From: Candidatus Multivoradales bacterium
Lineage (GTDB): Bacteria; Acidobacteriota; Thermoanaerobaculia; Multivoradales; Multivoraceae
Length of the DNA stretch: 64,000 nt
NCBI GenBank assembly: GCA_965223325.1
Contig: CBDCWI010000002.1
Coordinates: forward strand, 2,304,001 to 2,368,000
Reading direction: 5' to 3'
The notes under the pieces are model-generated. The model did no database searches, was not told the DNA's origin, and saw only the letters and a list, made by a program, of their open reading frames with translations. Below are positions 4,655-63,910 of this stretch, in pieces. Each line of letters opens with the position of its first letter. The first letter of the stretch is position 1. Both the position numbers and the translations under genes were made by a program.

Positions 4655-4676
4655 GCGGCGCCCCGCTATTGGACGG

Positions 4677-5582: not shown

Positions 5583-5601
5583 CTCGAGTCTCCGCCGGCG
5601 A

Positions 5602-6516: not shown

Positions 6517-6591
6517 GGCATCTGAGTCTACCCGCCCAGGCGCCCTCGCGGCAGGTCCAGGGCGGACCGGAAAACCGAACCATCCCGGTCG

Positions 6592-6999
6592 TTACGTCGC
6601 CGCGAGGTCCTGATCCCAGAACGCGGCTTCGATCTTGTGGCCGTCGAGATCACGCACGAAACAGCCGTAGTAGGGGGCACCGTACTCTTCGCGCGGGCCA
6701 GGTTCCCCGTCGGGCTCAGCGCCGGCGGCGAGCGCCGCCTCCCAGAACGAACGCACCTCCTGCTTGCTCGCCGCAATGAAACCAAAGTGGGTTCCGTTGC
6801 CGACATTGGCCTCGTTGCCATCGATGGGGGTCTGTACCCAGAACTCCGGAAACTGTCGGCCGTAGGCCACCGCGCCCGGGTGTTCGAGCACGCGGGTTGC
6901 CCCGATGGTCGCGAGGACAGAGTCGTAGAACTTCGTTGCCTTGTCGAACTCATTGGTGCCGAGCGAAGTGTGGGACATGATGCTGGGGTTCTCGCTCAT
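6592..6999 (-). CDS. VOC (glyoxalase/bleomycin resistance) family protein
   Basis: SHTSLGTN..KA..FYD, GNGTHFGF, GAEPDGEPGPR and YYGCFVRDLDGHKIE motifs; GGAG upstream of the ATG at 6999. Confidence 0.88.
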   Translation of the reverse strand: MSENPSIMSHTSLGTNEFDKATKFYDSVLATIGATRVLEHPGAVAYGRQFPEFWVQTPIDGNEANVGNGTHFGFIAASKQEVRSFWEAALAAGAEPDGEPGPREEYGAPYYGCFVRDLDGHKIEAAFWDQDLAAT

Positions 7000-7066
7000 C
7001 AAGGAGATCTCCGTTGGAACTGATGGTTCGCGGGGCCAGCATAGCGCTAGTCGGTACACTGCCGGC

Positions 7067-7888: not shown

Positions 7889-7898
7889 ATCGCCGCGG

Positions 7899-8789
7899 TC
7901 AGACGTCGAGACCGACATCTAGATTCGGTGCACTGTGGGTGAGCCAACCCACCGACATTTGATCGACGCCGGTGGCAGCGATCCCGGGTGCGGTCTCAGG
8001 GGAGATTCCGCCTGAAGCTTCGGTGAGCACGCGACCGTCACAAAGCGCAACCGCCTTCTCGAGGCCTTCGAGGGTGAAGTTGTCGAGCAGGACGGCATCG
8101 ACACCGATCGCCAGGGCCTCTTCGAGCTGTTCGAGCGAGTCGACCTCGAGTTGAATCTTGACCATGTGCCCCACGCCAGCGCGAGCCCGGGCGACAGCCT
8201 CCTCGACCGAGCCGGCAATCGCGATGTGGTTGTCTTTGATCAGCACCGCGTCGTCGAGACCGAAGCGGTGGTTCGTGCCACCGCCGCAGCGCACCGCATA
8301 CTTCTCGAGCGCCCGCAGTCCAGGAGTGGTCTTGCGCGTGCACACGATGCGCGTACGTGCGGCCCCGAGCGACGCCACCAGGTCGCGGGTGGTGGTGGCG
8401 ATTCCACACAGGCGACCGAGCAGGTTGAGGGCGGTGCGCTCGGCGGTGAGAATCGCGCCGGCGGGCCCCTCGATGCGCGCGATCTCGGTGCCCGCCGCAG
8501 CGTCTTCGCCATCGTCGACCAGGATGGTGATCTCACAGGCAGGATCGAGCAGGCGAAAGACCTCGAGTGCCGGCCGCACACCAGCGACGCGACCCGGCTT
8601 CCTCACCACGACGCGTGCCACGGTCGTAGCTGCGGCCGGAACGATCGCCTCGGTGGTCAGGTCACCGGCTTCGCCGAGATCCTCTTCGAGCGCCCGCCGT
8701 AGGAGCGGCTCGACGATGAGACGATGCGGAGGGCGCAGACTGTTGCGCGCGGTGGAGTTGCCTGAAGCGGAGTTGCCCGAAGTGCTCAA
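7899..8789 (-). CDS. nadC: Nicotinate-nucleotide pyrophosphorylase (carboxylating)
   Basis: EDL...GDLTT, CTRKTTPGLR, NHRFGLDD.VLIKDNH and LLDNF motifs. The TTG start overlapping the nadB stop (TTGA) is inferred. Confidence 0.95.
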   Translation of the reverse strand: MSTSGNSASGNSTARNSLRPPHRLIVEPLLRRALEEDLGEAGDLTTEAIVPAAATTVARVVVRKPGRVAGVRPALEVFRLLDPACEITILVDDGEDAAAGTEIARIEGPAGAILTAERTALNLLGRLCGIATTTRDLVASLGAARTRIVCTRKTTPGLRALEKYAVRCGGGTNHRFGLDDAVLIKDNHIAIAGSVEEAVARARAGVGHMVKIQLEVDSLEQLEEALAIGVDAVLLDNFTLEGLEKAVALCDGRVLTEASGGISPETAPGIAATGVDQMSVGWLTHSAPNLDVGLDV

Positions 8790-10531: not shown

Positions 10532-10599
10532 TCCTGGCTCCGGTTCAGAGGGTTGGTCTGCGAGTTCCAATGGCGTATCGATCGGTTGAAGGGCGCGGT

Positions 10600-11664
10600 T
10601 CAGTTGACTGGCGCACCCGGCGTGCGGGTGATCTTGACCTCGAGCATGCGCTCGACCGCCCGGCGCGCACGCTCGGCGACGTCTTCCGGAACCGTGACCT
10701 CGTGGGTCATGTTCTGGAGCGAAGCCAGGATCTTCGGCAAGGTGATGCGCTTCATGTGCGGGCACAGGTTGCAGGGGCGCACGAACTCGGTCTTCGGGTT
10801 GGCGACCGCGACGTTGTCGCTCATCGAGCACTCGGTGATCATCACCACGCGCTCCGGCGCCTTGTCAGCGACCCAACCACTCATCGCCGAGGTCGAGCCC
10901 ACGAAGTCCGACGCGTTGCAGACTTCGGGCGGACACTCCGGATGCGCCAGAACCACCACCCCCGGGTAGCGCTCGCGCGCATCCTCGATGTCACGCGCGG
11001 TGAAGCGCTCGTGAACCTCGCAATGACCCTTCCAGAGAATCAACTCGACGTCGGTCTGGGTCGCAACCCAGTTGCCGAGGTACTCGTCGGGCAGAAAGAT
11101 CACCCGGTCGACACCCAGCGACTCAACCACGTCGACCGCGTTGCCCGAAGTGCAGCACACGTCAGACTCGGCCTTCACCTCGGCCGAGGTGTTGACGTAG
11201 GTCACCACCGGCACGCCCGGGTAACGCTCCTTGAGCAGCCGAATGTCGGCACCAGTGATCGAGTCAGCCAGCGAACACCCGGCACGCATGTCCGGTATGA
11301 GCACCGTCTTCGACGGATTGAGGAGCTTCGCAGTCTCGGCCATGAAGTGCACCCCACAAAGAACGATCACCGAAGCGTCGGTCTCGGCCGCCAACCGCGC
11401 CAGGGCCAGCGAGTCGCCCGAAAGATCGGCCACCCCATGGAAGATCTCGGGCGTCTGGTAGTTGTGCGCCAGGATCACCGCGTCGCGCTCCTTCTTGAGC
11501 TTGTTGATCGCATCGATATAGGGCGCATGCACCGCCCACTCGATCTCCGGAATCACGTCCCGTACACGCTCCCAGGCATCCGCGGTGGCAAGTGCCACCT
11601 CCGGCGTATAGAGCAGGACGGAGTTCTCGGCTGCTTTGTTGGAATCGGAAGCTCTGGCGGTCAT
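10600..11664 (-). CDS. nadA: Quinolinate synthase
   Basis: [30 protein letters not shown] and CPHMK motifs. Confidence 0.97.
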
Positions 11665-11700
11665 CGGGTGAGGTCTCCTGAACTCGCAGTCTGCGAAATA

Positions 11701-11721
11701 TTATGCTCGATCTGAGCATAA
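11701..11721. promoter_or_regulatory. NadQ-type operator box 1
   Basis: Palindrome TTATGCTC-GATCT-GAGCATAA upstream of nadA; matches the published NadQ consensus ttATRCTCnnnnnGAGYATaa. Confidence 0.85.
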
Positions 11722-11765
11722 AGATCGGTCAAGAACAGCCGATTCCTAGGAGAATCGGCCAGCTT

Positions 11766-11786
11766 TTATGCTCGATATGAGTATAA
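11766..11786. promoter_or_regulatory. NadQ-type operator box 2
   Basis: TTATGCTC-GATAT-GAGTATAA; overlaps the predicted -10 element of the nadA promoter. Confidence 0.85.
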
Positions 11787-11809
11787 GGTCCTGAGAACAC
11801 TCTTGTCAA
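11780..11809 (-). promoter_or_regulatory. Sigma70-type promoter of nadABC
   Basis: Minus strand TTGACA-N18-TATACT. Confidence 0.65.
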
Positions 11810-11865
11810 GAACTTTCGTGGGCTCCTTCCTGGGCGACTCGAACTGGGAGTCTGTCGAACAGAGG

Positions 11866-11895
11866 TTGACAGTGGGCACGCAGAAGTACATACTT
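11866..11895 (+). promoter_or_regulatory. Sigma70-type promoter of vapBC with overlapping palindrome
   Basis: TTGACA-N17-CATACT ending 6 nt before the ATG; palindrome AAGTA-CA-TACTT over the -10. Confidence 0.6.
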
Positions 11896-11900
11896 TTCGT

Positions 11901-12161
11901 ATGAAACGTACGTCTCTTACGATTGACGAGCAGCTGCTGCAGGAGGCCCAGCGCTTGAGTGGCGAACGCAGCTACTCTAAAACCGTCGACCGGGCTCTGC
12001 ACGATTTCGTCAAGCGCATCAAGGCCCGCAGGATCCTCGAGCTGCGTGGCAGAGACCTATGGCGAGGCAGCCTCGATGAGATGCGCGGTGATCAGCCGGG
12101 CCGGGCCACAGGACCGGTCGCGGCAGTTCGGCAAGACGAAGTCGCAGAAGGCGATCCGTGA
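11901..12161 (+). CDS. vapB: Type II TA antitoxin, VapB family (RHH-like)
   Basis: MKRTSLTIDEQLL..A pattern and W.G.LDEMR tail; overlaps the PIN gene (GTGA). Confidence 0.85.
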   Translation: MKRTSLTIDEQLLQEAQRLSGERSYSKTVDRALHDFVKRIKARRILELRGRDLWRGSLDEMRGDQPGRATGPVAAVRQDEVAEGDP

Positions 12162-12547
12162 TCCTCGTCGATACCTCGGTCTGGATCGAGTTCTTCAACA
12201 GTTCGAGCGACCTCGACCTGGAAGCTGCCATCGACTTCGATGACATCGTGACCTGTCTGCCGGTTGTCCAGGAGATCCTGCAGGGCTTCGACAATGAGCG
12301 CGCCTATCGCCTGGCCCAGGAGGCACTGGCGAGCTTCCCGATCGTCGAGTCCCCACTCTCTCTGGAGGTCTTCCACGAGGCCGTTGACCTCTACCGCTCC
12401 GCCCGGCGCAGTGGCCACACGATCCGGTCGAGCGTCGACTGCCTGATCGCCGCCTGCGCAAGACGTAACGCGCTCACGATTCTTCACCGCGACCGTGACT
12501 TCGATGCCCTCGCACAGATCGCGCCGCTCGAAGTCGTCCGGATCTAG
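12158..12547 (+). CDS. vapC: Type II TA toxin, PIN-domain VapC
   Basis: MILVDTSVWI, QEILQG, SSVDCLIAA and LHRDRDF motifs. Confidence 0.92.
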   Translation: MILVDTSVWIEFFNSSSDLDLEAAIDFDDIVTCLPVVQEILQGFDNERAYRLAQEALASFPIVESPLSLEVFHEAVDLYRSARRSGHTIRSSVDCLIAACARRNALTILHRDRDFDALAQIAPLEVVRI

Positions 12548-12567
12548 GACGGCCCCTGCCAGACAGC

Positions 12568-12608
12568 GAAAACGGCGCCCCGGGTTCTCACCGTGAGCGC
12601 CGTCTCGC
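12568..12608. terminator. Hairpin between convergent vapC and the DsbA-like gene, possible terminator
   Basis: ACGGCGC...GCGCCGT stem with extensions; weak U-tract on the minus strand. Confidence 0.4.
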
Positions 12609-12626
12609 CTTTCTCGGGGTGAGCCT

Positions 12627-13469
12627 CTAGTCGGAAGTCTCCAGCGCGTTGTCGAGCGCTGCTTTGAACTCGTTGAACGCCTTCGCGCCACGCAGGAATG
12701 TCACGCCAGTGACCTTGGTGGGATCATTCGGGTCGGTTCTGGCCACCACGAAGCTCGGCGTTCCGCTGGCGCCGACCTTCTGCGCCTGCACCATGTCATT
12801 GCGAACCGACTTGGCGTAGGTCTCGGCTTCCATGCACTGCTCGAACTCGGCAACGTCGAGACCGAGCGTTTCGGCGTGCGCATTGATGGGCTCGATCTTC
12901 TTCTGGTTGGCAAACAGCAGATCGTGCATCTCCCAGTACTTGCCCTGGTCGTTGGCACAGTGCGTCGCTTCAGCGGCCGTAAAGGCGTCTTTATGAATCG
13001 ATTCCAGCGGTAGATCGAGAAGGGCGTAGCGGATCTTGCCGGTGTCGACGTACTCCTTCTGGATCTGCGGCAGGGTGTTCTGGGTGTAGCGGGCGCAGAA
13101 CGGGCACTGATAGTCGGTGAACTCGACCAGGGTGACCTTCGCGTCCTCGTTGCCCTTTAAAACGTTGTTGCCAAGGTCGATCGTCATGCCTGCAACCGAC
13201 GGGCCGGTTGGGCGCGCGGGTGCTGCCGCGGCGGGCCGGGCAGCGAGCTGCTTGGAGATCTCCTCGAGCTGCTTGCGAATCTCGGCCTGGCCGGCCTGTA
13301 GAGCATCGATCCGGCGTTCAAGGTCGATCTCGCTACGAATCGCGTCCTGCCCCGCCTTCAAGGCCTCGATCTCACGACGGAGTTCCTCCTGGTCCTTCTG
13401 GGCCGCGAGCGGGGCGACGAAAAGGGCACCGAGACTGACGGCGACCAGAATGCGTTTGGTGTGCTTCAT
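12627..13469 (-). CDS. Secreted DsbA/thioredoxin_4 family protein with N-terminal coiled coil
   Basis: Signal peptide, coiled-coil segment, EFTDYQCPFC, QGKYWEMHDLLF and SGTPSF (cis-Pro) motifs; AAGGAG RBS. Confidence 0.88.
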   Translation of the reverse strand: MKHTKRILVAVSLGALFVAPLAAQKDQEELRREIEALKAGQDAIRSEIDLERRIDALQAGQAEIRKQLEEISKQLAARPAAAAPARPTGPSVAGMTIDLGNNVLKGNEDAKVTLVEFTDYQCPFCARYTQNTLPQIQKEYVDTGKIRYALLDLPLESIHKDAFTAAEATHCANDQGKYWEMHDLLFANQKKIEPINAHAETLGLDVAEFEQCMEAETYAKSVRNDMVQAQKVGASGTPSFVVARTDPNDPTKVTGVTFLRGAKAFNEFKAALDNALETSD

Positions 13470-13671
13470 CGTTTCTATCTCCTTTGAAAACTCTTGCCTC
13501 GCGCGATTCGATGCGGAGGCTCGACTCTGAACTTGACGGTGCGGTGTTTCTTTTCGGTACCGCTTGGGCAAACAACACGGCCCGCCGGACGAGGAGGGTT
13601 CCCTGAATCAGGGCTTCAATGAAGAGTCGACGTTTCCGCGGAAACGTCTTCGGCGGTTTGGCCAAAAAAAC

Positions 13672-49606: not shown

Positions 49607-49795
49607 ACTCCGTGCGCCCCACAGAGTTCGTCCGCGAACGCTCCGGGCGCACTCCGTGCGCCCCACAGAGTTCGTCCGCGAACGCTCCGGGCGCACTCGG
49701 TGCGCCCCACAGAGTTCGTCCGCGAACGCTCCGGGCGCACTCGGTGCGCCCACAGAGTTCCTCTGCGAACGCTCCGAGCGCACTCCGTGCCCTAC
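49607..49795. repeat. REP-like tandem array, 44-bp unit, about 4.3 copies
   Basis: Unit ACTCCGTGCGCCCCACAGAGTTCGTCCGCGAACGCTCCGGGCGC; the minus strand reads GTGG/GTAG plus a GGCGCAC-GGA-GTGCGCC hairpin. Confidence 0.85.
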
Positions 49796-50274
49796 CCGCT
49801 ACCCTCGTACATCGCCGGTAGCTCACGAACTTCGCTGCTCAAAGCCAAGAACGGGTTTACGACCCGAACCGAACCATAGTGACGACCGTGCTCGAAGTCT
49901 TCTGAGATGATCTCGGGAATCCCACCGACCTCAGCATAGGCCCAAAGATGGGCATCGAACCAGGAGAGCTGGTACGCCGAGACTCCACGCAAGGCAAAGA
50001 TCAAGACCTCTTCATCGGGATAGACAACCGGGAACTGCCGCATCCAGTCTTCAGCGGCTAGCAAGGCAGCCTCGAGCGGCAGCAGAGGCTCATCGCCCAG
50101 GTCGGGACGGGGTCTGATGACCGCGGCAACGAACTCGAGAATCGCCTGATGAGGCAACAAAAGGTCACCCGACACGAGACCGCGCCGCAAGATGCTAGTC
50201 GCCACCTCCTGCTTCGCCGCATCTCGTGGGTCGTGACGATAGACGAGAATATTGGTGTCAATCAGACTCGCCAC
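49792..50274 (-). CDS. PIN-domain toxin
   Basis: LIDTNILVY, QAILEF, SWFDAHLWAYA, SEDF and VVNPF motifs. Confidence 0.9.
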   Translation of the reverse strand: MASLIDTNILVYRHDPRDAAKQEVATSILRRGLVSGDLLLPHQAILEFVAAVIRPRPDLGDEPLLPLEAALLAAEDWMRQFPVVYPDEEVLIFALRGVSAYQLSWFDAHLWAYAEVGGIPEIISEDFEHGRHYGSVRVVNPFLALSSEVRELPAMYEGSG

Positions 50275-50551
50275 GGCGATACAGATCCTCTCGGCTCCAG
50301 TCCCGCCTCGTCGTCAGCTGGGCTGGCAGCTTCAGCGTTTCCTGCCTTCTGCGCTGCCGTGCCGTCGCTTCGTCAAAGAGGCGTAAGCGTTCGGCCTGGC
50401 TGAGTTGGGTCTCGGTACAACGGCGGGGTGGCACGATCCGGATGAACTCCCCGGCCGCTTGGAAATCGATCTCGTCTCCAGGAACGATCCCGTACTCGTT
50501 GGCGAGGACCTTCGGAAGGGTGACCTGTAGTTTTGAAGTCACTTTTGCCAT
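50258..50551 (-). CDS. AbrB/MazE-family antitoxin
   Basis: MAKVTSKLQVTLPK...GIVPGDEIDF and C-terminal WSREDLY.R; overlaps the PIN gene. Confidence 0.9.
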   Translation of the reverse strand: MAKVTSKLQVTLPKVLANEYGIVPGDEIDFQAAGEFIRIVPPRRCTETQLSQAERLRLFDEATARQRRRQETLKLPAQLTTRRDWSREDLYRRGESD

Positions 50552-50557
50552 CTCCTT

Positions 50558-50581
50558 ACTATAACAAGGACGCGATCCTTG
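50558..50581 (-). promoter_or_regulatory. Extended -10 and palindromic operator of the AbrB-PIN pair
   Basis: TGtTATAGT 6 nt before the ATG; CAAGGA-N5-TCCTTG palindrome at 50565-50581. Confidence 0.45.
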
Positions 50582-50592
50582 ACCAGCTCGCG

Positions 50593-50635
50593 CGCACGGC
50601 GATGCCGCGCACGGTAGGGGGTAAGTTTTGACGGC
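50593..50635 (+). repeat. 43-bp hairpin repeat, copy A
   Basis: CGCACGGCGATGCCGCGCACGGTAGGGGGTAAGTTTTGACGGC. Confidence 0.9.
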
Positions 50636-50840
50636 AACGCCGTACTGGGCGGCGCGCCGAGTTCCGGAGCACTCCGTCGGCCTCCTTTACGACCTCAGGG
50701 GGTTGTCGGGAGGGCTGAAACCTCGCTTTCACCACCCCTCCAACCGCGGCACTCCACCCGAAAGACGCAGCTCCGCCATTGCACCGGTAGGCGCGTTCCC
50801 CTCGAGCCGTCAACCACCTCTTCGTCGGCAGCCCGGACCG

Positions 50841-51805
50841 TCAGGGACCGTCGCGAGCACCCGGCCCAGGCACTTCCAGGGCCACAAACGGCAACGGGCT
50901 TGGGAAAGTCCCTGGCGGAAACTTCGCCTCCAGGTCACCACTCCACAGAAGATCGCGCGCCGTGCGATGCGCCCGCCTCACCGCATCGAATACCGAAAGT
51001 AGCCGATTACGCTCGTGCGAGTCCGACGCGATGACCCGGGGCCTCGGCCCCCAATCGAGCCTCCGCGGGCGGCGCATCGGACTCACTTGCGTCGTTTTGT
51101 AGGCACCGCGAGGCCTCGTGCCCTTTCGCTTGTGGCGCGCCCGGGTCTCGTCCTCGATCTCAACAATCATGCCGCGGGCCCAGTCGAAGTACTCCTCGTC
51201 AGGGAGGTCCTCGAAGCACGGAAGCTTCGATAACACGACCGTCTCGTGGCTCGAGAAGTCCTTATTCGCTCAAACGACGACCGGCTTTCGAAAAACGGGC
51301 ACGACGAAGCGCTGAACGATCGACCCAGGTGCCCTCGAGCTCGAAGGTCCCTGACCAGAGTGCCTCCCCTACCGACACGCCTGGCCACTTGCGAGGTGAA
51401 GACACCAACCCCGCCTTGCAACCCTGGGCAAGGATGTAGCGGAAACGACGGCAGAGGTCCTTCTTTGCGTGACCGGGAAACGACGTCTTGACGGCCCCTC
51501 CCACTTCGGCCCCTTGAACCCCCGCAGGATCCGCAGTTCCACACTCGTCTGGTGCTGAATGCGCCGCATGAAATCGGCCAGCTGCTGGGCGTCGCGAGCG
51601 CCCAGCAGAAGGTGAGCATGGTTGACCTGGTAGTCCAGGGCGTGGATCCGGATTTCGGTCTTTCGCTGCGCGCGGCCGATGATCCCGACCAGCAGATCGC
51701 GTAGGCGTGACGATGGCGCCAACAGGAAGAACCCGTTGACGATACGCCTTCGACGACTCCCCAACCACTTCCGTCGGTGGGGACATACCTCAGTTGATGG
51801 GCCAT
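50841..51805 (-). pseudogene. Decayed HUH/Y1 transposase (REP-associated tyrosine transposase-like)
   Basis: Fragments in four successive frames: MAHQLRY..., FLLAPS...NHAHLLL (HUH), RYILAQG..GLV.SP.KWPG (catalytic Tyr region), LPCF...FPPGTF; at least three frameshifts. Confidence 0.8.
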
Positions 51806-51945
51806 GACTCTTCGCACGGAACCATCGATGCCTTGCAGGGAGCCGAATCCTATCGGATGACCCTCGCCATCGACCAACTGTCATTTGTGAATCGGGCTAC
51901 ACGTCAGGTCGGTGGCGAGTCCCGGTCCTGCGCCACGACTTCGAC

Positions 51946-51988
51946 TCAAAACTTACCCCCGACTGGGCGCGGCATCGCCGCGCGATCT
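51946..51988 (-). repeat. Hairpin repeat, copy B (inverted)
   Basis: Minus strand AGATCGCGCGGCGATGCCGCGCCCAGTCGGGGGTAAGTTTTGA. Confidence 0.88.
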
Positions 51989-52143
51989 CGTCCAGACCGT
52001 ATGGATCGACGAAACGGACTGGGTTGTTCAGAACGTAGGCGTACAGATTCCAACTCTGGGGCAGCGAGAGGTCGCCGCCAATGGGGTCAGTGGAGGTGAA
52101 TCGTGAGTAGGTTGGGTAGTAGTAGCGAGCATGCATGTAGTCG
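51989..52143 (-). pseudogene. Orphan Rhs core-end stub
   Basis: DYMHARYYYPTYSRFTSTDP...PQSWNLYAYVLNNPVRFVDPYGL, cut by repeat B a few codons after DPxG. Confidence 0.85.
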
Positions 52144-52719
52144 CTACTTGCCCACGGTTTCCAATCTGGCTGTGACCCTCTCCAGAATTCTCTCGTCGGA
52201 GACCTTCGAGCGGGATCCCGTACCCAATATCTCAGCCCACTCGAAGCCGACCGCCCGGGCTAGACCTTCCAGCGCGGTCTCGGCAATGACGCTGCCCTCG
52301 GGCGCGCTCACATAGGTCGAGTGCCCTTCGAGTTCGCGCAGCATCACGATGTCATTATTCAATCGGAGATGAGCACCAGCCACTGAGATAGCCGAGAGCC
52401 GGCAGTCATCTTCGGCATCCCACTCTCGCCCGCCAAGGTCCGCCATGATCTCGTCGCGATAGTCGGCTGACAGGCCCCAGTCGTTACAAAGCACAGATAG
52501 TGCTAGCGCGTGCGTCATCGGATCCGTTCGACAGCCGAGAAATCGCACCACCAGATCGCGATAGCGGATGGCCTGAGCTGCACCAAGGATATTGAGCAGT
52601 GTGTAGGCGTCGCCCTCGCCTCGCACGAGTCGTGCCGCGATCTCGTCAAGCTCATGCGCCGAGATGCGCCCGTCTTGGGCTCGCCGCAATGCGCCCGAAA
52701 GGTCCTCCGCGTTCATCAC
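52144..52719 (-). CDS. Putative immunity protein for the orphan toxin (helical, HEAT-like)
   Basis: Starts 3 nt after the toxin stop; alpha-helical composition. Confidence 0.7.
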   Translation of the reverse strand: MMNAEDLSGALRRAQDGRISAHELDEIAARLVRGEGDAYTLLNILGAAQAIRYRDLVVRFLGCRTDPMTHALALSVLCNDWGLSADYRDEIMADLGGREWDAEDDCRLSAISVAGAHLRLNNDIVMLRELEGHSTYVSAPEGSVIAETALEGLARAVGFEWAEILGTGSRSKVSDERILERVTARLETVGK

Positions 52720-52722
52720 TTG

Positions 52723-55108
52723 CTACTTGGGAACGAACTTCCTGGACTGATCTAGGAGCTTGCTGGCATCAGCAAGTTCTCTGGTTAGGGCTTCACGCTC
52801 CGCTCGTGGAAGATCGACTCCGCTCAGCTTGGTGTTGATCGCGGAGATTCGGTTCTGAAGCCCCCGCTGGGCGTTGCGAACCTTCTGGACGTGATCGAAC
52901 GGCGTCCCGTCTGGCTTCACGGAGACGACTTCGCCCGCTAGCTCTCTTCGAGCTGCGTCAAGGGTCTCTGGAGTTAGATGCTCTTTGAACCTATCAGTCT
53001 TTCGAACTGCGGTCCCGACGACCCGATTCCCGTCGAGTGCCTTGTCCGCAGCCTGAAGACCGTCGATGAACCGACCGCCAACCGACGGCACGAACGGTAG
53101 CGCCGCTCCGGCGACATCGAGTACGGCCCCGAGGATGTTGCCGAACGATGGATCGTTCCGTGCCTGGTTGATCGAGATCCCCGCCATCGCGACGTCAAAG
53201 ACGATCTCGGCGGCCTCTCCGTCGGGATCGACGTTGATGATCGGATTGTTCCGAACGTAGGCATAGCGGTTCCACGACTGCGGGAGCATCGGGTCGTAGC
53301 TCTCGCCGCTCGGGTCGGTGGAGGTGAATCGCGAGTACGTGGGGTAGTAGTAGCGAGCATGCATGTAGTCGAGGTCATCCTCAGCCGAGCCGGTGTGGTT
53401 GAAGTCACGCTCGTGGCCGGTGAATTTCCACTGCAGGCCGTCCTGGTCTGACGTCGTCGCTTCGCGTCCGTAGGGGTAGTAGACGTCGTAGGCGACTTCG
53501 TTTCCGCCTGCATCAGTGGTCTGGCGCACGGTGCCGAGATGGTCGGTGTGGAGGTAACGGCGGCCTTCTGAGGTTTCGGCAGCCAGGACCCTGCCGAGGC
53601 CGCGGATGGTGTCTTCGTAGGTGAAGACGCCGTTGTCGGTGGTGTACTCGCGTAGCACCTGGCCGCCCAGGTCGCGGATCGCCCACTGGCTGCGTGCGGC
53701 CAGGTCGTACTCCCAGATGCGCTCGCCCGAAGCGTCGTAGATGTAGACCGCTGAGGTCTGTTGGCTCGGTGGCGAGGTCGACCCGTCGTCTTGCACGCAC
53801 GGGTTGTCGGGGAAGACCGAGCTGGCGCAGAGGACCTCGCCGAAGGCGCCGTAGCGGAAGATGCGACCGTCGGCCTCGACGAGGCTTCCGTCCTGCTGGT
53901 AACTGGTGCCGGCGACGGTCAGTCGGTTGGTGTGTTGACTGGTTGGGGTCGCACGGCCTCCGCCACCTGCCGTCCTCTGGAGGTTGCCGAAGACGTCGTA
54001 GGTAAACACCTGGCGGCGCTCGATGCCGGCGCCGTTGCGGGCGAGGTGCACTCCCGCCTCGGCGAGGCGGTTGACGGCGTCGTAGCGGTACCAGGAACCG
54101 CCGATCGAGAGGATGTTGCCTGAGCCGTCGTAGGTGTAGGTGCCGGTGGACCAGTTGCGGTTGCTCCCTACACCGCTTGTCGAGATGCGCCGAGGGCGTC
54201 TCTTGCTGTAGGGGTCGAGGGTGTGGGTCTCGGTGACGCCGTTTCTAAACGCGATGCTTACGAGGGCCTGGTTCCGGTGGTAGCCGACGGAGTCGAGGTA
54301 GCCGGGCACCTTCCGCAGGAAGCCGCGGCCGTACTCGAAGCTCACGCTCCGTGACGGAGCGGGATCGTTGGTGCAGGGTGTCGCGTAGCCCCCTCCTTCA
54401 CACTTCGGGTAGTGGATTCTGGTGGTCGCTCCCAGGTCGTCGTACTCGAAGCCCTGGCTGAAGGCGTTCGACAGGTTGCCGTTGACGTAGACCCCGGTTC
54501 TTCGAGACGACGCGAGGCCGCCCCTGCCCCTGTACTCGAGCTCCTGCTCGACGCGCACGACGTGGTCTTCGCGGTCGGGCCGGTAGAGCGTCAGGTGGTT
54601 GTGGCGGACCAGGCGGGTGACTTTGCCGCCGCTGCGGTTGCTTCCCGAAGAGGCGTTCGACCACTGCCACTCTTTGAGTGGCAGGAAGGCAGCCTCCTCG
54701 TTCTGGCAGTCACCCGCGAAGCTGAAGTCGATGCGCACCGCCCGGCCCGCCCCGTCATAGCGGTGGCAGAGCTTGCGCCAGGCGTCGCGCACGAAGCCGA
54801 CGTTGCCGAGGGCGTCGTAGTCCGAGTACTGGATCTCTTTGGGTGCATGGCCCGCCGTGCGCTCGGGATGGTCTTCTCCGACCAGGAAGCCACGCAGGTC
54901 GTAGGAGAAGGTGCGCTTCTGGCTCACTCCGCCGTGGCTGGTGGTTACGGTGCGCAACCGATCGGCATGGTCGTAGCCGTAGGTTGTGTGGACGCGCGCC
55001 TTCGCGGCACCGGCTGAGTGCTCCTCCACCTTGTAGAGGCGACCGAACGCGTCGTAATGGAGGCGCTTGGGGATGCTTTCGAGCGTGACGTCGCTGCCGC
55101 TTCCTCCC
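52723..55108 (-). pseudogene. Orphan, 5'-truncated Rhs with Ntox28-like C-terminal toxin
   Basis: Open frame duplicating part of the main Rhs core, DPDG cleavage site, and C-terminal KEHLT...AARREL.GE...KPDG.PFDH...V.NA..GL resembling polymorphic toxin type 28. Confidence 0.8.
53346..55108 (-). repeat. 1.76-kb direct repeat of 56765-58527 (Rhs core)
   Basis: Same offset of 3419 bp at both ends; highly similar with scattered substitutions. Confidence 0.93.
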
Positions 55109-55174
55109 CGGCGCACCACGGGCTGGCTGAACACCAGGTACGCGCGCCCGCCCGAGGCCGCATGCTCCTGGTGT

Positions 55175-55534
55175 CTACCCTTCTCTGAGATCTTCCAACA
55201 AGCATCCGAGCTCGTCGTCGCCGGTCAGTTCGACTGCACTCTCCAGCGCCTTCATCGCCTCGGTCTCCCTACCGAGAGACCAAAGCGAGTGGAAGAGTGC
55301 GCCGTGCGCCAGCAGCGAACTTGGATTCAGCGTCAGAGTCTCATCAAGTATTGGCACTGCTTCTGCTGGCCGTCCCGCTCGCCATAGTGTCGTGCCCAAG
55401 AGGCCCAGGACGACAGGGTCCTTTCCCGAGGATGATTTCAGGTCGAGAAGAATCTCAATCGCTCTCTCCGGGTCGGTTTCTTTGATTGCAATCGCCTCGG
55501 CGAGGCGATCGCAAACCGTCTTACTCCTCTTCAC
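55175..55534 (-). CDS. TPR protein, putative orphan immunity protein (paralog of 55796-56173)
   Basis: AIAIKETDPERAIEILL...GLLGTTLW...EAVP.L...P.S..AH..LFHSLW..GR aligns with the upstream paralog. Confidence 0.8.
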   Translation of the reverse strand: MKRSKTVCDRLAEAIAIKETDPERAIEILLDLKSSSGKDPVVLGLLGTTLWRAGRPAEAVPILDETLTLNPSSLLAHGALFHSLWSLGRETEAMKALESAVELTGDDELGCLLEDLREG

Positions 55535-55670
55535 GATTCTCTCCTGGGTCGTCGAACTCCCGAATCGCATCGGCTGTGAGTCGATTCGGCTTGCTTACGT
55601 GGTCGAAGCAATCCTGTGACTTTGTTGGGCTGTCGATGATCACGCCCGTCGTCCTGCCCTGTCGAAGATC
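55521..55670 (-). pseudogene. Start-less remnant of a variant of the main Rhs C-terminal toxin
   Basis: Translates DLRQGRTTGVIIDSPTKS...DDPGENREEE*, against the main toxin's DLRRGKTDGVIIDSIEKS...GLRDEDE*. Confidence 0.8.
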
Positions 55671-55712
55671 GCACGGCGATGCCGCGCACGGTAGGGGGTA
55701 GGTTCTGACGGC
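55666..55712 (+). repeat. Hairpin repeat, copy C
   Basis: AGATCGCACGGCGATGCCGCGCACGGTAGGGGGTAGGTTCTGACGGC; 41/43 identical to copy A. Confidence 0.9.
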
Positions 55713-55795
55713 GGGGGCAGGTTTTCACAGCGTCGCCGGGCCCCGACTGTGCGCAGCATCCTCCTACCCACCTCCGCGGGGCCGTAAGGATTACT

Positions 55796-56173
55796 TCAGC
55801 CCGAGAGGTTCTCCGAGGCTCCTTCAATGGAAACGAGGAGATCGGCGAACTCGCTAGAGCCGGTTCGACGCACCGCGTCCCGAAGAGCTGCAACTGCGTC
55901 TGCCTTTCTGCCCTGATCCCACAGTGCGTGGAACAGAACCCTGTGCGCGTTCTCCGAGTTCGGCGAGCTCTGCAAACAACTCCGAAGGTGCGGTACCGCT
56001 TCTCGAGGCCGCTTTCTGGACCACAACAGGCTCCCAAGAAGCCCAGCGATCACGGGATTGCCGCCGAACTCCTGCCGTACTGGCAAGAGAAGGTCAATCG
56101 CGGCGTCCGGATCGTCCGTCTTGAGCTCGATCGCGGCTTCCAGAACCTCGCGTTCTCGTTTACTCATCTTCAT
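55796..56173 (-). CDS. TPR protein, putative cognate immunity protein of the main Rhs toxin
   Basis: Overlaps the Rhs stop; TPR-like helices (GLLGSLLW...EAVPHL...PNSENAH..LFHALW..GR..DA). Confidence 0.8.
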   Translation of the reverse strand: MKMSKREREVLEAAIELKTDDPDAAIDLLLPVRQEFGGNPVIAGLLGSLLWSRKRPREAVPHLRSCLQSSPNSENAHRVLFHALWDQGRKADAVAALRDAVRRTGSSEFADLLVSIEGASENLSG

Positions 56174-59100
56174 CGCGAAGACCCCAATCTTCCAGGGCGT
56201 CGTCGAGAGTTCGGATCCTGTCGAGCGCGTTTTGAGCTCGCCGCTCCGATTTCTCGATACTGTCGATGATAACGCCATCTGTCTTCCCTCGCCGGAGATC
56301 CGACTGCTTCTTCTCGATGCTGTCGAGCTGATCCAGGGCGTCGCTACCTGTTTCGATGGTGCGGCTGTCCCTGCCGGTTTCCGAGGACTGACCTTCATCG
56401 TCGACATCTGTCGCGTCTTCGTCTGAACGGGAACTCCGAAAGATGTTCGCTATCGCATCCCGAGCTGCTCGTCCAAGGTCGATCAGAGCTTCAGCACCCT
56501 CACGCAGATCCTCTTGCACGACTTCCAGGTTTGTCATCTCAGGCTGTACCGGGTTGGGGCTGGATGCCCAAACGGCTACTGCTCCTGCAGCCGCAGCGGT
56601 AGCGCTGACCACAACAACAGTGCTCGAGACCGGCTCTCGCCCGTCAGGGTCGACCTTCGTCAGGGGGCTCGCAGTTGCGTACGTATATTTGTTCCAGGTC
56701 TGCGGAAACCCGGGCTTCCCCGAGTTGATCGGATCAGTTGTTGTAAACCGGCCCAGCCCCGGCGAGTAGTAGCGAGCATGCATGTAGTCGAGGTCATCCT
56801 CAGCCGAGCCGGTGTGGTTGAAGTCACGCTCGTGGCCGGTGAATTTCCACTGCAGGCCGTCCTGCTCTGACGTCGTCGCTTCGCGTCCGTAGGGGTAGTA
56901 GACGTCGTAGGCGACTTCGTTGCCTTCTCTATCGGTGGTCTGGCGCACGGTGCCGAGGTGGTCCGTGTGGAGGTAGCGGCGGCCTTCACTCGTTTCGGCT
57001 GCCAGGACCCTGCCGAGGCCACGGATGGTGTCTTCGTAGGTGAAGACGCCGTTGTCGGTGGTGTACTCGCGTAGCACCTGGCCGCCCAGGTCGCGGATCG
57101 CCCACTGGCTGCGCGCTGCCAGGTCGTACTCCCAGATGCGCTCGTCCGAAGCGTCGTAGATGTAGACCGCTGAGCTTTGTTGACTCGGTGGCGACGTCGA
57201 CCCGTCGTCTTGAACGCACGGGTTGTCAGGGAAGACCGAGCTGGCGCAGAGGACCTCGCCGAAGGCACCGTAGCGGAAGATGCGGCCGTCGGCCTCGATG
57301 AGGCTCCCATCTTGCTGGTACCGGGTGCCGGCGACGGTCAGGCGGTTGGTGTGTTGACTGGTCGGGGTCGCACGGCCTCCGCCACCTGCCGTCCTCTGGA
57401 GGTTGCCGAAAACGTCGTAGGTAAACACCTGCCGGCGTTCGCTGCCGGCGCCGCCGCGGGCGAGGTGGACTCCCGCCTCGGCGAGGCGGTGGACGGCGTC
57501 GTAGCGGTACCAGGAGCCGCCGATCGAGAGGACGTTGCCTGAGCCGTCGTAGGTGTAGGTGCCGGTGGACCAGTTGCGGTTGCTCCCAACACCGCTTGTC
57601 GAGATGCGCCGAGGGCGTCTCTTGCTGTAGGGGTCGAGGGTGTGGGTCTCGGTGACACCGTTTCTAAACACGATGCTTGCGAGGGCCTGGTTCCGGTGGT
57701 AGCCGACTGAGTTGATGTAGCCCGGGACTTTGCGCAGGAAGCCGCGGCCGTACTCGAAGCTCACGCTTCGTGACGGGGCGGGATCGTTGGTGCAGGGTGT
57801 CGCGTAGCCCCCTCCTTCACACCGCGGGTAGTGGATTCTGATGGTCGCTCCCAGGTCGTCGTACTCGAAGCCCTGGCTGAAGGCGTTCGACAGGTTGTCG
57901 TTGACGTAGATCCCGGTTCTTCGAGACGACGCGAGGCCGCCCCTGCCCCAGTACTCGAGCTCCTGCTCGACGCGCACGACGTGGTCTTCGCGGTCGGGCC
58001 GGTAGAGCGTCAGGTGGTTGTGGCGGACCAGGCGCGTGACTTTGCCGCCGCTTCGGTTGCTTCCCGAAGAGGCGTTCGACCACTGCCACTCCTTGAGCGG
58101 CAGGAAGCCGCCCTCCTCGTTCTGGCAGTCACCCGCGAAGCTGAAGTCGATGCGCACCGGCCGGCCCGCCCCGTCATAACGGTGGCAGAGCTGGCGCCAG
58201 GCGTTGCGCACGAAGCCGACGTTTCCGAGCGCGTCGTAGTCCGCGTACCGGGTCTCTTTGGGTGCATGGCCCGCCGTGCGCTCGGGACGATCCTCGGAAA
58301 CCAGAAAGCCGCGCAGGTCGTAGGAGAAGGTGCGCTTCTGGGTCACTCCGCCATGGCTGGTGCGCACCGTGCGCAGTCGATCGGCATGGTCGTAGGTGTA
58401 GGCCGTTTGCACACGACTCTTCGCGGCACCGGCTGAGTGTTCCTCCACCTTGGAGAGACGACCGAACGCGTCGTAGTGGAGGCGCTTGGGGATGCTTTCG
58501 AGCGTGACGTCGCTGCCGCTTCCTCCCGCGCCGACTTCGGACCATTCGGTGGTCAGCCGGATCCCGCGATAGACGAACCGTTTCTGGTGCACCTTCCCCT
58601 CAGGGGGACGAATCACCCGTGCGCGCCCGAACGGGTCGTAGGAGAGAAACTGGGTGCGTTTCGAGGTGTCGCCCCACTCGGAGACGAACCGGCGGTTGCC
58701 GCTCGGGTCGTAGCCGATGATCCGGTTGCTCCAGATGCCGCCCGGGAGCAACCGGCTCTCGAGGTTCAAGCGGCCCAGATTGTCAAAGCGCACCCGCTCC
58801 CGGGCGAGATCTCCACCGGTGCGCTTCCCGTTGGGGCGGTAGTGGGTATAGACCCAGCCACCGTCGTTTCCCTCGGGCCTCGTGTAGCGATACTCGAGCC
58901 AGGTCGTCTGGTCGGGTTCGAGACGACGGATGCGCCCCAGGCGATCGAAGCTGTAGTCGATACCGAGACCCGATCCATCGGTCGAGCGGCTCAGATACCC
59001 GGTACTCGGATCGACCGTTCCCGAGAGCTCGACCGGGTAGCCCACAAAACCCGCACGGCTGAGCGTGCCGTAGCGATAGCGCGCCTCGCGCACGTAGGCA

Positions 59101-62363: not shown

Positions 62364-62395
62364 ATTTCTGGTTGCCTTCGCTCCGGCGAACGCTC

Positions 62396-63910
62396 CTAGC
62401 GAACTCCGTGCGTCATCCTGTTGATCAGCGGAGAGAGAACCAGGAACACCAGGCCCGAAACGATCGCCACCATCGCAACGGTGCTAAAGAGCTGCGACAC
62501 CGGCATCGACTCGATCCGGGCACCGACCAGGCCAGCGATCAGGTTGCCCAGGGCGGCGCCCATGAACCAGGTCCCCATCATCTGGCCCACCAGGCGTTCC
62601 GGTGCCAACTTGGTCATCGAACTCAGTCCCACCGGGCTCAAACAAAGCTCGCCGACCGTGTGGAAGAAGTACGTCACCACCAACCACCTCATGCCGACCA
62701 GAGGAATCGAGCCGTCGGCGTTCGGAGTCGGTGCGCCCCAGGCGAGAACCAGGAAGCCAACGCCGAGCAGCACCAGTCCGAGAAAGAACTTCACCGGAAT
62801 CGAAGGGTTGCGCTTGCCGAGCCACACCCAGAGACTTCCGATCACCGGCGAGAGGAGAATGATCAGCATCGAGTTGACGTTCTGCACCGAGCCGGCCGGA
62901 ACTTCAAAGCTGCCCACCATACGATCGGTGAAGTCGCGCGCGAACAGAGTCATCGAGGAGCCGGCCTGCTCGAAGCCCGACCAGAACAGCGCCGCGCCGA
63001 GAAACAAGAGCGCACAGACCGCAACCCGACCGCGCTCCACCTTGTCGCGACACACGAAGGCGATCACATAGGCAAAGTAGACCAGCGACAGGGCCGTAAC
63101 GATGTAGCCCGTCAGGTCAACGAACCCCAGCGGCCCGCCCTCGGGCGCCTGCATGAAGAGCAACCGGCCACTCGAGACCAACCACCAAACAAGAGCCGCC
63201 AGCGCCACAAACACTCCAACACCAGCCATCAGCTGGCGCCAACCGGTCGCGATGCGCTGCGGGTCGTTCTCAGAGTCCGCCAGGTCACCGGCACCCTCCA
63301 GCTGGCGCTGCCCGTACCAGTACTGAATCACGCCCAGGGTCATACCAATCGCCGCCGCACCGAAGCCCAGGTGCCAGTCGTACTTCTCGCCCAGAAAAGG
63401 GCAGATCAACTGACCGAGGAACGCACCGAGGTTGATGCCCGAGTAGAAGATGCCAAACCCCGCGTCGCGCCGCGCGCCACCCTCGGGGTAGAGATCGCCA
63501 ACGATCGCACTGACGTTCGGCTTCAAGAGCCCGGTTCCCACCGTGACCAGAAACAAACCAGCGAAGAACGTCGACTGGCTGTTGATGAACAGGCAGTAGT
63601 GGCCCAGGGCGATGACGATTCCGCCCCACAGCACCGCCTTCTTCTTGCCGATCAAGCGATCCGCCACCCAGCCGCCAGGCAAAGCCAGGGCATAAACGCC
63701 AAAGGTATAGAGCCCATAAACCGCCGACGCCATCGGCACGCCCATGCCAAAGCCGCCGTTGGCGACCGCATCTGTCATGAAGAGCACCAGGAGCGCGCGC
63801 ATACCGTAGTAGCTGAAGCGCTCCCACATCTCAGTAAAGAAGAGTGTCGACAGCCCACGGGGATGCCCCATGAACTGTTGTCCAGACGGAATCGGATCAG
63901 CTGTGCTCAT
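62396..63910 (-). CDS. Proton-dependent oligopeptide (POT/PTR) MFS transporter
   Basis: GHPRGL..LFFTEMWERFSYYGMR, GTGLLKPN, FYSGINLGA and GELCLSPVGLS motifs. Confidence 0.95.
   Translation of the reverse strand: MSTADPIPSGQQFMGHPRGLSTLFFTEMWERFSYYGMRALLVLFMTDAVANGGFGMGVPMASAVYGLYTFGVYALALPGGWVADRLIGKKKAVLWGGIVIALGHYCLFINSQSTFFAGLFLVTVGTGLLKPNVSAIVGDLYPEGGARRDAGFGIFYSGINLGAFLGQLICPFLGEKYDWHLGFGAAAIGMTLGVIQYWYGQRQLEGAGDLADSENDPQRIATGWRQLMAGVGVFVALAALVWWLVSSGRLLFMQAPEGGPLGFVDLTGYIVTALSLVYFAYVIAFVCRDKVERGRVAVCALLFLGAALFWSGFEQAGSSMTLFARDFTDRMVGSFEVPAGSVQNVNSMLIILLSPVIGSLWVWLGKRNPSIPVKFFLGLVLLGVGFLVLAWGAPTPNADGSIPLVGMRWLVVTYFFHTVGELCLSPVGLSSMTKLAPERLVGQMMGTWFMGAALGNLIAGLVGARIESMPVSQLFSTVAMVAIVSGLVFLVLSPLINRMTHGVR

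Follow-up and report, generated by a model that had tools for sequence, protein, structure and literature searches.

The three hairpin repeats that lie in the Rhs array of the window (the whole 64,000-nucleotide stretch) are the terminal inverted repeats, ~45 bp long and each with a hairpin, of a lineage-specific insertion sequence (IS) of ~1.39 kb. We hold the reading as a whole, i.e., rare IS ends, two insertions into the Rhs array and toxin genes truncated there, with a probability of about 0.7. The repeats had been described in a sequence-only reading as A, B and C, and all three were recovered where that reading had placed them: repeat A at 50593-50635 (+), B at 51946-51988 (-) and C at 55666-55712 (+). 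The arms of A and B are 39 nt long and 90% complementary, with a spacer of 1314 nt, those of B and C 43 nt long and 86% complementary, with a spacer of 3677 nt, and A and C form a 43-nt direct repeat (95%). The window has 3 copies of their 13-mer core, GGCGATGCCGCGC, where 0.62 would be expected, and 0 of 100 shuffles gave as many as 3. As a check on the assembly, the junctions of A, B and C are bridged by independent short-read contigs (four public runs from one study). The features are as follows, in the order of the window.

50593 to 51988, minus strand: IS1, a full-length, decayed copy of 1396 bp, with the transposase gene running from end B to end A
50593 to 50635, plus strand: end A, the terminal repeat of IS1 located 3' of the transposase gene; outermost it reads the non-canonical GCGC, not GATC
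50840 to 51877, minus strand: Y1/HUH transposase gene, frameshifted, its pieces in three reading frames (PF01797, 24.5 bits on one frame)
51946 to 51988, minus strand: end B, the terminal repeat of IS1 located 5' of the transposase gene; its GATC is canonical and its 7-bp hairpin perfect
51989 to 52142, minus strand: Rhs core stub (DYMHARYY...VDPYGLDE) of 51 residues, toxin domain missing, cut at end B
52144 to 52719, minus strand: 191-aa ORF, candidate immunity gene of the Ntox28 orphan
52723 to 55134, minus strand: orphan Rhs module of 803 aa with YD repeats, Rhs-associated core and Ntox28 toxin domain
55175 to 55570, minus strand: imm2, a TPR protein 44% identical to the TPR protein after the main Rhs gene
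55521 to 55670, minus strand: variant toxin C-terminal fragment of 49 residues, aligning with the C-terminus of the main Rhs toxin
55666 to 55768, minus strand: Delta-IS2, an internally deleted sister copy of ~103 bp in the same orientation as IS1
55796 to 56173, minus strand: imm1, a TPR protein of 125 aa, its start overlapping the main Rhs stop codon
56160 to 61922, minus strand: main Rhs gene, encoding 1920 aa; its toxin tip belongs to no known family

Each repeat is laid out as GATC, a 7-bp hairpin with a GAT loop, and a GGTnGGGGGTAAGTTTTGA tail. Ten full-length copies of the IS are present in the genome with a mutual identity of 88-100% (most pairs 88-95%), together with many truncated copies; IS1 is 88-92% identical to the other nine. 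The association of the repeats with a transposase, as the sequence-only reading proposed, is thus borne out, as they are the terminal repeats of this IS. Searching the genome with nhmmer gives 65 matches to the ends, 47 of them with E below 1e-3. These 47 significant ends make up 11 loci, and 28 of the 47 are found within two variable islands of defence type, which hold GmrSD-, Eco57I- and SbcCD-like genes and from which Rhs sequence is absent. Solo ends, i.e., repeats without a full IS, exist elsewhere in the genome, with mismatches in the stem, and no target duplication is evident at the IS copies. A wider occurrence of the repeat in relatives was not found: it has no match in the same-genus genome, and of 299 further genomes from the order 292 have none and 7 have one or two matches, all at 2 mismatches. 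An empty site was not found either.

The IS encodes a single Y1/HUH transposase of 323-347 aa and has no tnpB gene. Between A and B this gene is decayed, as had been read from the DNA; compared with an intact copy, the IS1 transposase contains three frame-breaking indels (a loss of 7 nt at ~51747, a 1-nt loss at 51490 and a 1-nt gain at 51264). Intact homologues, which the same reading had called for, do exist, as open frames of 323-347 aa are present in 8 of 9 full-length copies that were examined. An intact copy matches PF01797 (Y1_Tnp) with 26.6 bits (curated cut-off 23). Among 16 relatives N88-H89 of the HUH motif is nearly invariant and H91 is found in most (VNHAHLLL), and Y150 (RFRYILAQG) is invariant in 16 of 16; by analogy, these are the putative catalytic residues. 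For the predicted model (pLDDT 79.9), the best Foldseek match to a solved structure is 4er8, a REP-associated tyrosine transposase (E=6.8e-4, target TM-score 0.58), and further matches are the ISDra2, IS200 and IS608 transposases (top set 4er8, 2xo6, 2f4f and 2vjv, probability 0.99-1.00). The predicted fold is accordingly closest to that of a REP-associated transposase. At the sequence level no match was found in the PDB, and the NCBIfam equivalog REP_Tyr_transpos gives 31.6 bits, far below its cut-off of 80. The family is very rare: out of a collection of 5.8 billion proteins, 7,044 candidates were scored, and 17 of these have an E of up to 0.001; one homologue, 35% identical, carries the source name RayT. 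The transposase also has a C-terminal extension of ~180 aa.

Every full IS copy has its hairpins on the outside and its tails directed inward, yet the hairpins of B and C both point at the 3.7-kb block between them. The block is therefore outside both copies and B and C are no functional end pair; it is ordinary orphan-array DNA, flanked by two IS copies of the same orientation, and the idea that B and C are inverted ends around it has to be given up. The sequence AGATCGC, which borders the block at both B and C, had been pointed out as shared by the two. It is the conserved terminus of the IS family, as GATC adjoins the hairpin in 21 of 39 ends, 10 of these 21 with a preceding A. Repeat B is predicted to fold into a 7-bp stem with a GAT loop, while A and C have a G-to-A change in the stem, and their hairpin differs from the predicted minimum-energy fold. 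This stem variant is rare (3 of 39 ends) and, since A and C have it in common, IS1 and IS2 can be regarded as sisters. Delta-IS2 joins one complete end of the A type, C (55666-55712), to a partial end in inverted orientation (55741-55768); the latter lacks the outer stem arm and is a weak match (E=0.026). Delta-IS2 folds into a long hairpin of -29 kcal/mol, and an equally good fold is obtained in 6 of 200 shuffles.

The array has the layout of an Rhs locus, i.e., a main gene with YD repeats and Rhs-associated core, a DPxG end, an immunity gene and orphan modules. The 803-aa orphan is 93.7% identical to the main Rhs gene at the DNA level over 1763 nt. Judged by position only, the 191-aa ORF, for which a family search gave no match, may be the immunity gene of the Ntox28 orphan, and imm2 is probably that of the truncated toxin. 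Both truncations that had been reported at the repeats are confirmed. At B, the 51-residue stub (Rhs_assc_core, 53.6 bits) ends just after its DPxG site with ...VDPYGLDE, where an orphan paralogue reads CGAGATCG at the aligned position. At C, the variant toxin C-terminus begins as a 49-residue fragment that aligns to the end of the main toxin, its first codon overlapping the GATC of the repeat. Beyond end A there is a MazE/PIN pair, not the remainder of the toxin gene, with the mazE-like start codon 41 nt downstream of this end.

We suggest that two sister IS copies inserted, in equal orientation, into the orphan part of the Rhs array, each at a native GATC within an orphan toxin gene. Insertion at GATC can be proposed because uninterrupted paralogues, only 71-77% identical near the junctions, have a GATC in register with both of them (CGAGATCG at B and GGATCT at C), and GATC is sparse, at only 6-7 per kb. 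At three nested junctions the native sequence, as reconstructed, has only the G in common with the terminus. IS1 (A-B) would afterwards have gathered its frameshifts and lost the A-side terminus plus the downstream remainder of the toxin. IS2 would have been reduced to a stump of ~100 bp, consisting of C and the partial inverted end, and would have lost its other terminus plus the upstream part of the split toxin gene. That deletions next to the termini caused the loss of these gene parts is suggested because A and the partial end 55741-55768 have non-canonical outer bases or lack them, and because MazE/PIN lies beyond A. By analogy with IS608/ISDra2 and TnpA-REP, a single strand may be nicked beside the hairpins.

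The closest known elements are similar only in part. Like the IS200/IS605 family (IS608, ISDra2), this IS has one small HUH/Tyr transposase with a Y1_Tnp match and, as predicted, the same fold, and a hairpin at each end beside a conserved tetranucleotide, comparable to the guide tetranucleotides 5' of palindromes described for that family (PMC8266576); target duplication is not evident here. However, the protein is 323-347 aa long, where the solved transposases have about 130-160 aa, there is no tnpB, and the family is very rare. Members of IS200/IS605 typically have different subterminal hairpins and no terminal inverted repeats, whereas the two ends here are ~45-bp inverted repeats of each other (39-43 nt, 86-90% complementary). 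The H-repeats of E. coli (H-rpt) are of a DDE-type family (ISAs1), not HUH/Y1, and are not known to have hairpin ends. These IS-like repeats are noted beside Rhs C-terminal tips (PMC3032704), and the likeness is that a transposase-type repeat is embedded between orphan Rhs tips, which follow intact rhs genes; the transposition of H-repeats is said in the same source not to have been observed. With IS200/IS605, RAYT genes between inverted REPs and the E. coli H-repeats known, the earlier statement that no system like this had been described is too strong. As in other Rhs loci with a main gene and orphans, there is a main gene (1920 aa), an orphan (803 aa, Ntox28), a core stub and a small ORF after each toxin. 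Two orphan boundaries here, however, come from IS ends and not from core recombination, and every orphan of a second array starts at an IS-like end.

In this second Rhs array (G000:C2:2017-2038 kb), each of the 4 orphan modules has its start exactly at a related hairpin end. Their mutual homology starts at the outer terminus (G)ATCGC, with no similarity upstream, and covers a leader of ~165 nt and then a core fragment (EARFYDP...VDPDGR). A fifth leader unit is present at another Rhs locus, on the other contig. All five units have the identical leader/core junction, and five different sequences adjoin exactly one common terminus. A conserved non-coding upstream segment is shortened by 81 nt, with the break exactly at one terminus. 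The only recent duplicate among them, units u2 and u5 (u2/u5), has a leader that is ~88% identical and a nearly identical toxin part; it ends inside the toxin ORF and is mosaic, which fits homologous recombination. Three of these four leader hairpins have mismatches in the stem; two leader ends were folded, and only u4 gives a 7-bp stem. At C1:1720-1724 kb, chimeric Rhs and IS scraps lie between unrelated genes, and one end there has the stem variant otherwise private to A and C of the window. At a third Rhs locus the Rhs gene is followed by an immunity-like ORF and, 83 nt further on, by another Y1-type IS. The immunity genes of three different Rhs main modules each have a Y1-type end or IS nearby, within about 30-630 nt. 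In the genome, clusters of ends occur within 3 kb of 3 of the 6 Rhs loci, as is reached in 111 of 200,000 uniform random placements, a lenient null since any dispensable DNA tends to accumulate IS copies. The repeat family is thus nearer to Rhs loci in this genome than random placement would give, and the expected enrichment at Rhs/immunity junctions is supported in part, by these three loci and by the second-array orphans.

From such observations it can be speculated that the hairpin ends are nick/join sites where Y1 transposases, acting in trans, capture, shuffle or move Rhs toxin-immunity cassettes, or that the outer ends of two same-orientation copies mobilise the intervening DNA as a composite element; Delta-IS2 and IS1 do flank the block in direct orientation. 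Capturing, moving or inverting cassettes was also the route proposed in the sequence-only reading. Integron attC sites offer an analogy for it, as folded single-strand hairpin sites at cassette boundaries, here those of the four second-array orphans, but an integrase-type recombinase and an attI-like site are absent, there is one boundary per cassette, and the hairpins are partly degenerate, with stem mismatches in the leaders and in A and C. The terminus-exact starts of the four orphans and of the fifth unit, and the upstream segment that ends early at a terminus, argue for such a route, yet the ends are oppositely oriented to Rhs transcription in the two arrays, and the one recent duplicate stops inside a toxin ORF. 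Likewise, the scraps at C1:1720-1724 kb include an end with the A/C stem variant, but most Rhs/IS joints in scrap loci are inside the IS (positions 465, 528, 703, 805 and 1187) and not at its termini. The third-locus IS speaks for the route as well, and the closeness of end clusters to Rhs loci has to be read against the lenient null. No copy of the block was found, 8 of 8 tested junctions are unique in the genome, and no cassette is bounded by ends on both sides, as the second-array orphans have one end each. Neither excision nor inversion joints of the block, which had been suggested at AGATCGC, are seen in the short-read contigs of 4 runs, in which rare forms would be invisible, and no comparable Rhs-end arrangement was found in the other genomes or metagenomes searched. 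We consider this route unlikely.

Equally, the closeness to Rhs might have no mechanistic meaning, if arrays and IS both collect in DNA that is dispensable and tolerates rearrangement, and the leader is one old IS relic spread with the core by homologous recombination. The ends in the two defence-type islands, the age of the copies (most pairs 88-95% identical) and the u2/u5 mosaic agree with this, and the leader/core junction common to all five units indicates a single origin. However, five sequences at one terminus need five terminus-precise events, and the Y1-type ends or IS near the immunity genes of three main modules do not fit well either, so this explanation, too, is a rather improbable one. 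Still further from the data is a domesticated REP/RAYT system (REPtron), whose solo ends would not be relics of transposition but would serve the host, e.g., by terminating transcription or stabilising mRNA between toxin cassettes. The IS is similar to REPtrons in its gene between two inverted hairpin repeats, as a RAYT between REPs, the conserved tetranucleotide at the 5' foot, the solo hairpins elsewhere, the best structural match (4er8) and the homologue named RayT. But the whole unit is multi-copy (10 copies) and decays like an IS, with about 47 clustered ends, while RAYTs are described as typically single-copy and REPs as abundant and dispersed (PMC5581495). The tetranucleotide is GATC and not GTAG, the one with a described role in REP/RAYT systems (PMC8266576), the score for the RAYT equivalog is far too low, and solo ends have stem mismatches. 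We find a host function of this kind very improbable.

We thus favour the two insertions of a rare IS into the Rhs array, with truncation of the toxin genes. Insertion and random decay alone do not explain the frequent ends at Rhs loci, beside which this IS family lies unusually often in this genome, or the terminus-exact starts of the second-array orphans. For the array in the window, A, B and C are no new cassette-moving machine; they are the ends of an insertion sequence.

Three copies of a hairpin repeat of about 43 bp, A, B and C, lie in the window where the sequence-only reading had placed them, and they are above chance: their 13-nt core occurs 3 times against 0.62 expected, a count reached in 0 of 100 shuffles. 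A and B bound IS1, a copy of an insertion sequence (IS) of about 1.39 kb, while C sits in a stump of about 103 bp, delta-IS2. The 3.7-kb orphan Rhs block lies between B and C.

Hairpin repeats in the window
50593-50635, plus strand: repeat A, terminal end on the transposase-3' side of IS1
51946-51988, minus strand: repeat B, terminal end on the transposase-5' side of IS1
55666-55712, plus strand: repeat C, A-type end, part of delta-IS2

A and B form inverted arms of 39 nt (90% complementary, spacer 1314 nt), B and C inverted arms of 43 nt (86% complementary, spacer 3677 nt), and A and C are direct repeats with 95% identity. B is predicted to fold into a perfect stem of 7 bp closed by a GAT loop. 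In A and C, a stem G is replaced by A, and a fold other than the hairpin is predicted as the best. Directly before B stands a 51-residue Rhs core stub ending in VDPYGLDE, and adjoining C is a 49-residue toxin C-terminal fragment, which aligns to the end of the toxin of the main Rhs gene. The junctions of A, B and C are all spanned by short-read contigs from four public runs of one study.

Both the other copies of the family and the Y1/HUH character of its protein identify the repeats as terminal inverted repeats of an autonomous IS200/RAYT-type insertion sequence. In this genome of 6.69 Mb in two contigs, C1 and C2, of which the window is C2:2304001-2368000, the A-B unit has nine more full-length relatives and many truncated ones, and the ten full-length copies are 88-100% identical to each other. 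Open frames of 323-347 aa are found in eight of the nine full-length copies examined. IS1 is without one: compared with an intact copy, its gene has lost 7 nt at one place and 1 nt at another and has gained 1 nt. The transposase scores 26.6 bits against Pfam Y1_Tnp (cut-off 23) and matches the NCBIfam RAYT model weakly (31.6 bits, cut-off 80). In an alignment of 16 relatives, Y150 is invariant, N88-H89 nearly so, and H91 is present in most. Against PDB sequences, phmmer found no meaningful match (best E-value 0.44). The AlphaFold model (pLDDT 79.9) has as its best match among solved structures 4er8, a REP-associated tyrosine transposase, followed by the ISDra2, IS200 and IS608 transposases. 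The family is rare: 17 proteins, several of them from this genome, reach E <=0.001 among 7,044 candidates scored out of a collection of 5.8 billion proteins. In total, the genome contains 29 Y1_Tnp matches belonging to several distinct families.

A profile of the ends finds 65 matches in the genome, 47 of them with E below 1e-3, in 11 loci. More than half of these 47 (28) fall in two variable islands, C1:2122-2143 kb (about 2122-2144 kb) and C2:4443-4491 kb, which encode defence-type genes (GmrSD-like, an Eco57I-like methylase and SbcCD-like). The islands also have segmental duplicates in common, one 500-nt IS flank being 100% identical between them. Two pairs of copies have common flanks (500 nt at 100% and 207 nt at 99.5%) and are thus segmental duplicates, not independent insertions. 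No target duplication is present in the flanks of the full-length copies.

All full copies have the same geometry, i.e., GATC outermost, then the hairpin, then a tail directed inward, with the transposase read from the B-type end towards the A-type end. The outer termini of B and C both point at the 3.7-kb block; thus, the block lies outside two elements of the same orientation. That C belongs to a stump, and is not a bare solo end, follows from an inverted partial end at 55741-55768, which consists of loop, inner stem arm and tail (a weak match, E=0.026) and pairs with C into a long hairpin of -29 kcal/mol, equalled by 6 of 200 shuffles. The stem variant of A and C occurs in only three of 39 ends, the third carrier being at C1:1720956, which makes IS1 and IS2 sister copies. 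Since GATC adjoins the hairpin in 21 of the 39 ends, with an A before it in 10 of these 21, the AGATCGC common to B and C is a feature of the family. Its proposed role as a special site of joining is therefore rejected; it is the family terminus. The sequence-only reading was right to associate the repeats with a transposase, as they are IS ends, but B and C are no functional pair, as the block is outside both elements, and nothing shows movement of a toxin-immunity cassette. We also considered a single IS, split by a simple insertion, with B and C as its ends. This is rejected, because as a continuation of the stub at B, the fragment at C falls about 100 residues short.

We suggest that the truncations arose in two steps, in which each element would have inserted into a gene and a deletion starting at one of its termini would then have removed the adjacent part. 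This is suggested by the absence of the missing gene parts beyond either element. Past A lies a MazE/PIN pair, not the missing toxin part, and the outermost bases of A are GCGC in place of GATC. The far end of delta-IS2 lacks the outer stem arm and lies 27 nt past the immunity-like TPR gene of the main Rhs gene. In uninterrupted paralogues, a GATC is in register with both the B and the C junction: the Ntox28 orphan reads CGAGATCG at the position where the stub meets B, and the main toxin reads GGATCT where the fragment meets C, with only 6-7 GATC per kb. These paralogues are only 71-77% identical near the junctions, and at three nested junctions, the native sequence has only a G in common with the terminus. 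The in-register GATC fits insertion at native GATC sites, albeit not securely. Such insertion would be analogous to the use of a set tetranucleotide as target or guide in IS200/IS605 elements and of GTAG in REPs (PMC8266576).

Both ORFs of the pair beyond A are on the minus strand: 50258-50551 encodes a MazE/AbrB-type antitoxin and 49792-50274 a PIN-domain toxin. The antitoxin start codon is only 41 nt downstream of A's outer terminus, and the promoter region of the pair may therefore come from the IS or have been displaced by it. Four tandem 44-bp units occupy 49607-49794, with the PIN gene on one side and an ECF sigma-factor gene on the other. The second half of the unit has about 72 dispersed genome matches at <=6 mismatches (a raw count, not controlled by shuffling), and a further copy of the repeat is at 62386-62412. 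It looks like a separate, truly dispersed REP-like family.

The genome contains six Rhs loci by the Rhs-associated core model, and clusters of ends lie within 3 kb of three of them, which 111 of 200,000 uniform random placements reach. The expected enrichment at Rhs loci thus holds as a non-random closeness, but uniform placement is a lenient null model, as IS copies gather in any dispensable DNA. Two scrap loci, C2:4529-4534 kb and C1:1720-1724 kb, contain Rhs pieces 83-97% identical to genes of the window, interleaved with IS pieces. Most of their Rhs/IS joints are internal to the IS, and none of the joints recurs elsewhere in the genome. In locus L003 (G000:C2:4521000-4538000), a clean inversion has joined IS position 805 reciprocally to the Rhs site equivalent to window 57214 (joints at 12311 and 13219), while a second, independent Rhs/IS joint, in locus L002, is 13 nt away in Rhs coordinates. 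Both are within a small potential hairpin (ACCCGTCG...CGCACGGGT), which may be a local breakage hot spot. L003 also contains two identical degenerate end-like hairpins (2093-2145 and 7197-7249), 5104 bp apart, each upstream of a 620-625-aa ORF without family match, in a 5.1-kb tandem duplication.

A DNA search with window 50200-56200 found the IS in none of 31 related genomes, only Rhs-core and MazE-like similarity. Among 300 genomes of the order, the end pattern at <=2 mismatches gave 34 matches in this genome, 1-2 matches in seven of the other 299 (among the matches listed, all with two mismatches) and none in the rest. Two exact end patterns had 0 matches each in genome_contigs and in metagenome_contigs, where exact matching misses diverged relatives. 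Over 49800-56800, neither IS1 nor the block is excised or inverted in the short-read contigs of the four runs, but since contigs cannot show rare forms, this speaks neither for nor against mobility; other joints in the contigs come from other IS/Rhs copies, e.g., the C2:4533.6 kb junction. The empty alleles, IS-carrying relatives and rearranged joints that the sequence-only reading had pointed to were thus not found in these genomes and contigs. At window 52324, inside a 191-aa immunity-like ORF, the contigs of all four runs are 6 nt shorter, either a strain difference or an assembly difference.

Two further Rhs loci bear on what the ends do.

Further Rhs loci and a second type of element
L016 (G000:C2:2012000-2029999), 4378-13658: second Rhs array, main gene with an open frame of 3705 aa and four orphan modules
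L017 (G000:C1:1779000-1793000), 5620-9660: Rhs gene of the third Rhs locus, followed by a 193-aa ORF (immunity-like)
L017, 10321-11748: different Y1-type IS, inverted ends of 33 nt (85% complementary), 368-aa ORF weakly matching Y1_Tnp

The Y1-type IS of L017 lies 83 nt past the immunity-like ORF. The most pronounced pattern is that of the second array (C2:2017-2038 kb): in front of each of its four orphans, all of which start with MGRFLTEDPVFGDLSDPPSLHWYTYGKVNPTVWVDPDGR, lie a related hairpin end and a conserved leader of about 165 nt; a fifth leader unit is at the third Rhs locus. Homology among the four orphans begins exactly at the outer terminus of the end and continues through the leader into the core fragment, while upstream of the termini the four units have no similarity. 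A conserved non-coding segment upstream is shortened by 81 nt, exactly at one terminus. No orphan toxin of the array has a Pfam match, and no sigma-70 promoters were found in the leaders (L016 5300-14400; 1 site in the region against 1.1 expected).

It can be speculated that Y1/HUH (RAYT-like) hairpin ends are boundary sites of Rhs toxin-immunity cassettes, at which transposases acting in trans would nick single-stranded DNA at GATC and drive the insertion, deletion and exchange of orphans. For polymorphic toxins, such a route would be the counterpart of the cassette handling of integrons, guided by hairpins and acting on single strands. It would explain why all four orphans of the second array and the fifth unit elsewhere start exactly at an end terminus, why such an element lies just past the immunity gene in three Rhs main modules, and why Rhs-IS chimeric scraps exist at distant loci. 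However, with respect to Rhs transcription, the ends of one array are oriented opposite to those of the other. No cassette has a second boundary site, and the only recent duplicate, a mosaic produced by recombination, stops within the toxin ORF. Further, three of the four leader hairpins have a stem mismatch (of two leader ends folded, only that of unit u4 forms a 7-bp stem), and the leader has only about 30-45 nt in common with the ends of two IS families of this genome, the rest being unrelated to the interiors of these families. We therefore regard cassette handling as improbable and retain it because the present data offer no explanation for leaders that begin so precisely at a terminus in the second array. 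If they do reflect transposase action, this would point to a new way of handling toxin cassettes, in a pattern seen in one genome only.

Among known systems, the mechanism of IS200/IS605 elements, together with RAYT genes between inverted REPs, is most like that of the insertion sequence described here. Compared with IS200/IS605, this element has long terminal inverted repeats and a larger protein. RAYTs are described as typically single-copy (PMC5581495), while this element is multi-copy, scores below the RAYT equivalog cut-off and has GATC rather than GTAG. In E. coli, IS-like repeats (H-rpt) are on record among Rhs tips (PMC3032704). In a full-text literature search, no HUH/IS200-type element at orphan polymorphic-toxin cassettes stood among the titles and abstracts listed.

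The Rhs orphan array is thus disrupted by a rare Y1/HUH insertion sequence, which is built like a RAYT gene between inverted REPs, is multi-copy in the manner of an IS and belongs to a very rare protein family. Gain, displacement and loss of orphan Rhs modules are usually ascribed to homologous recombination through the conserved core. An HUH-type insertion sequence that lands in orphan toxin genes and removes adjacent DNA is probably a second, ordinary contributor at this locus.
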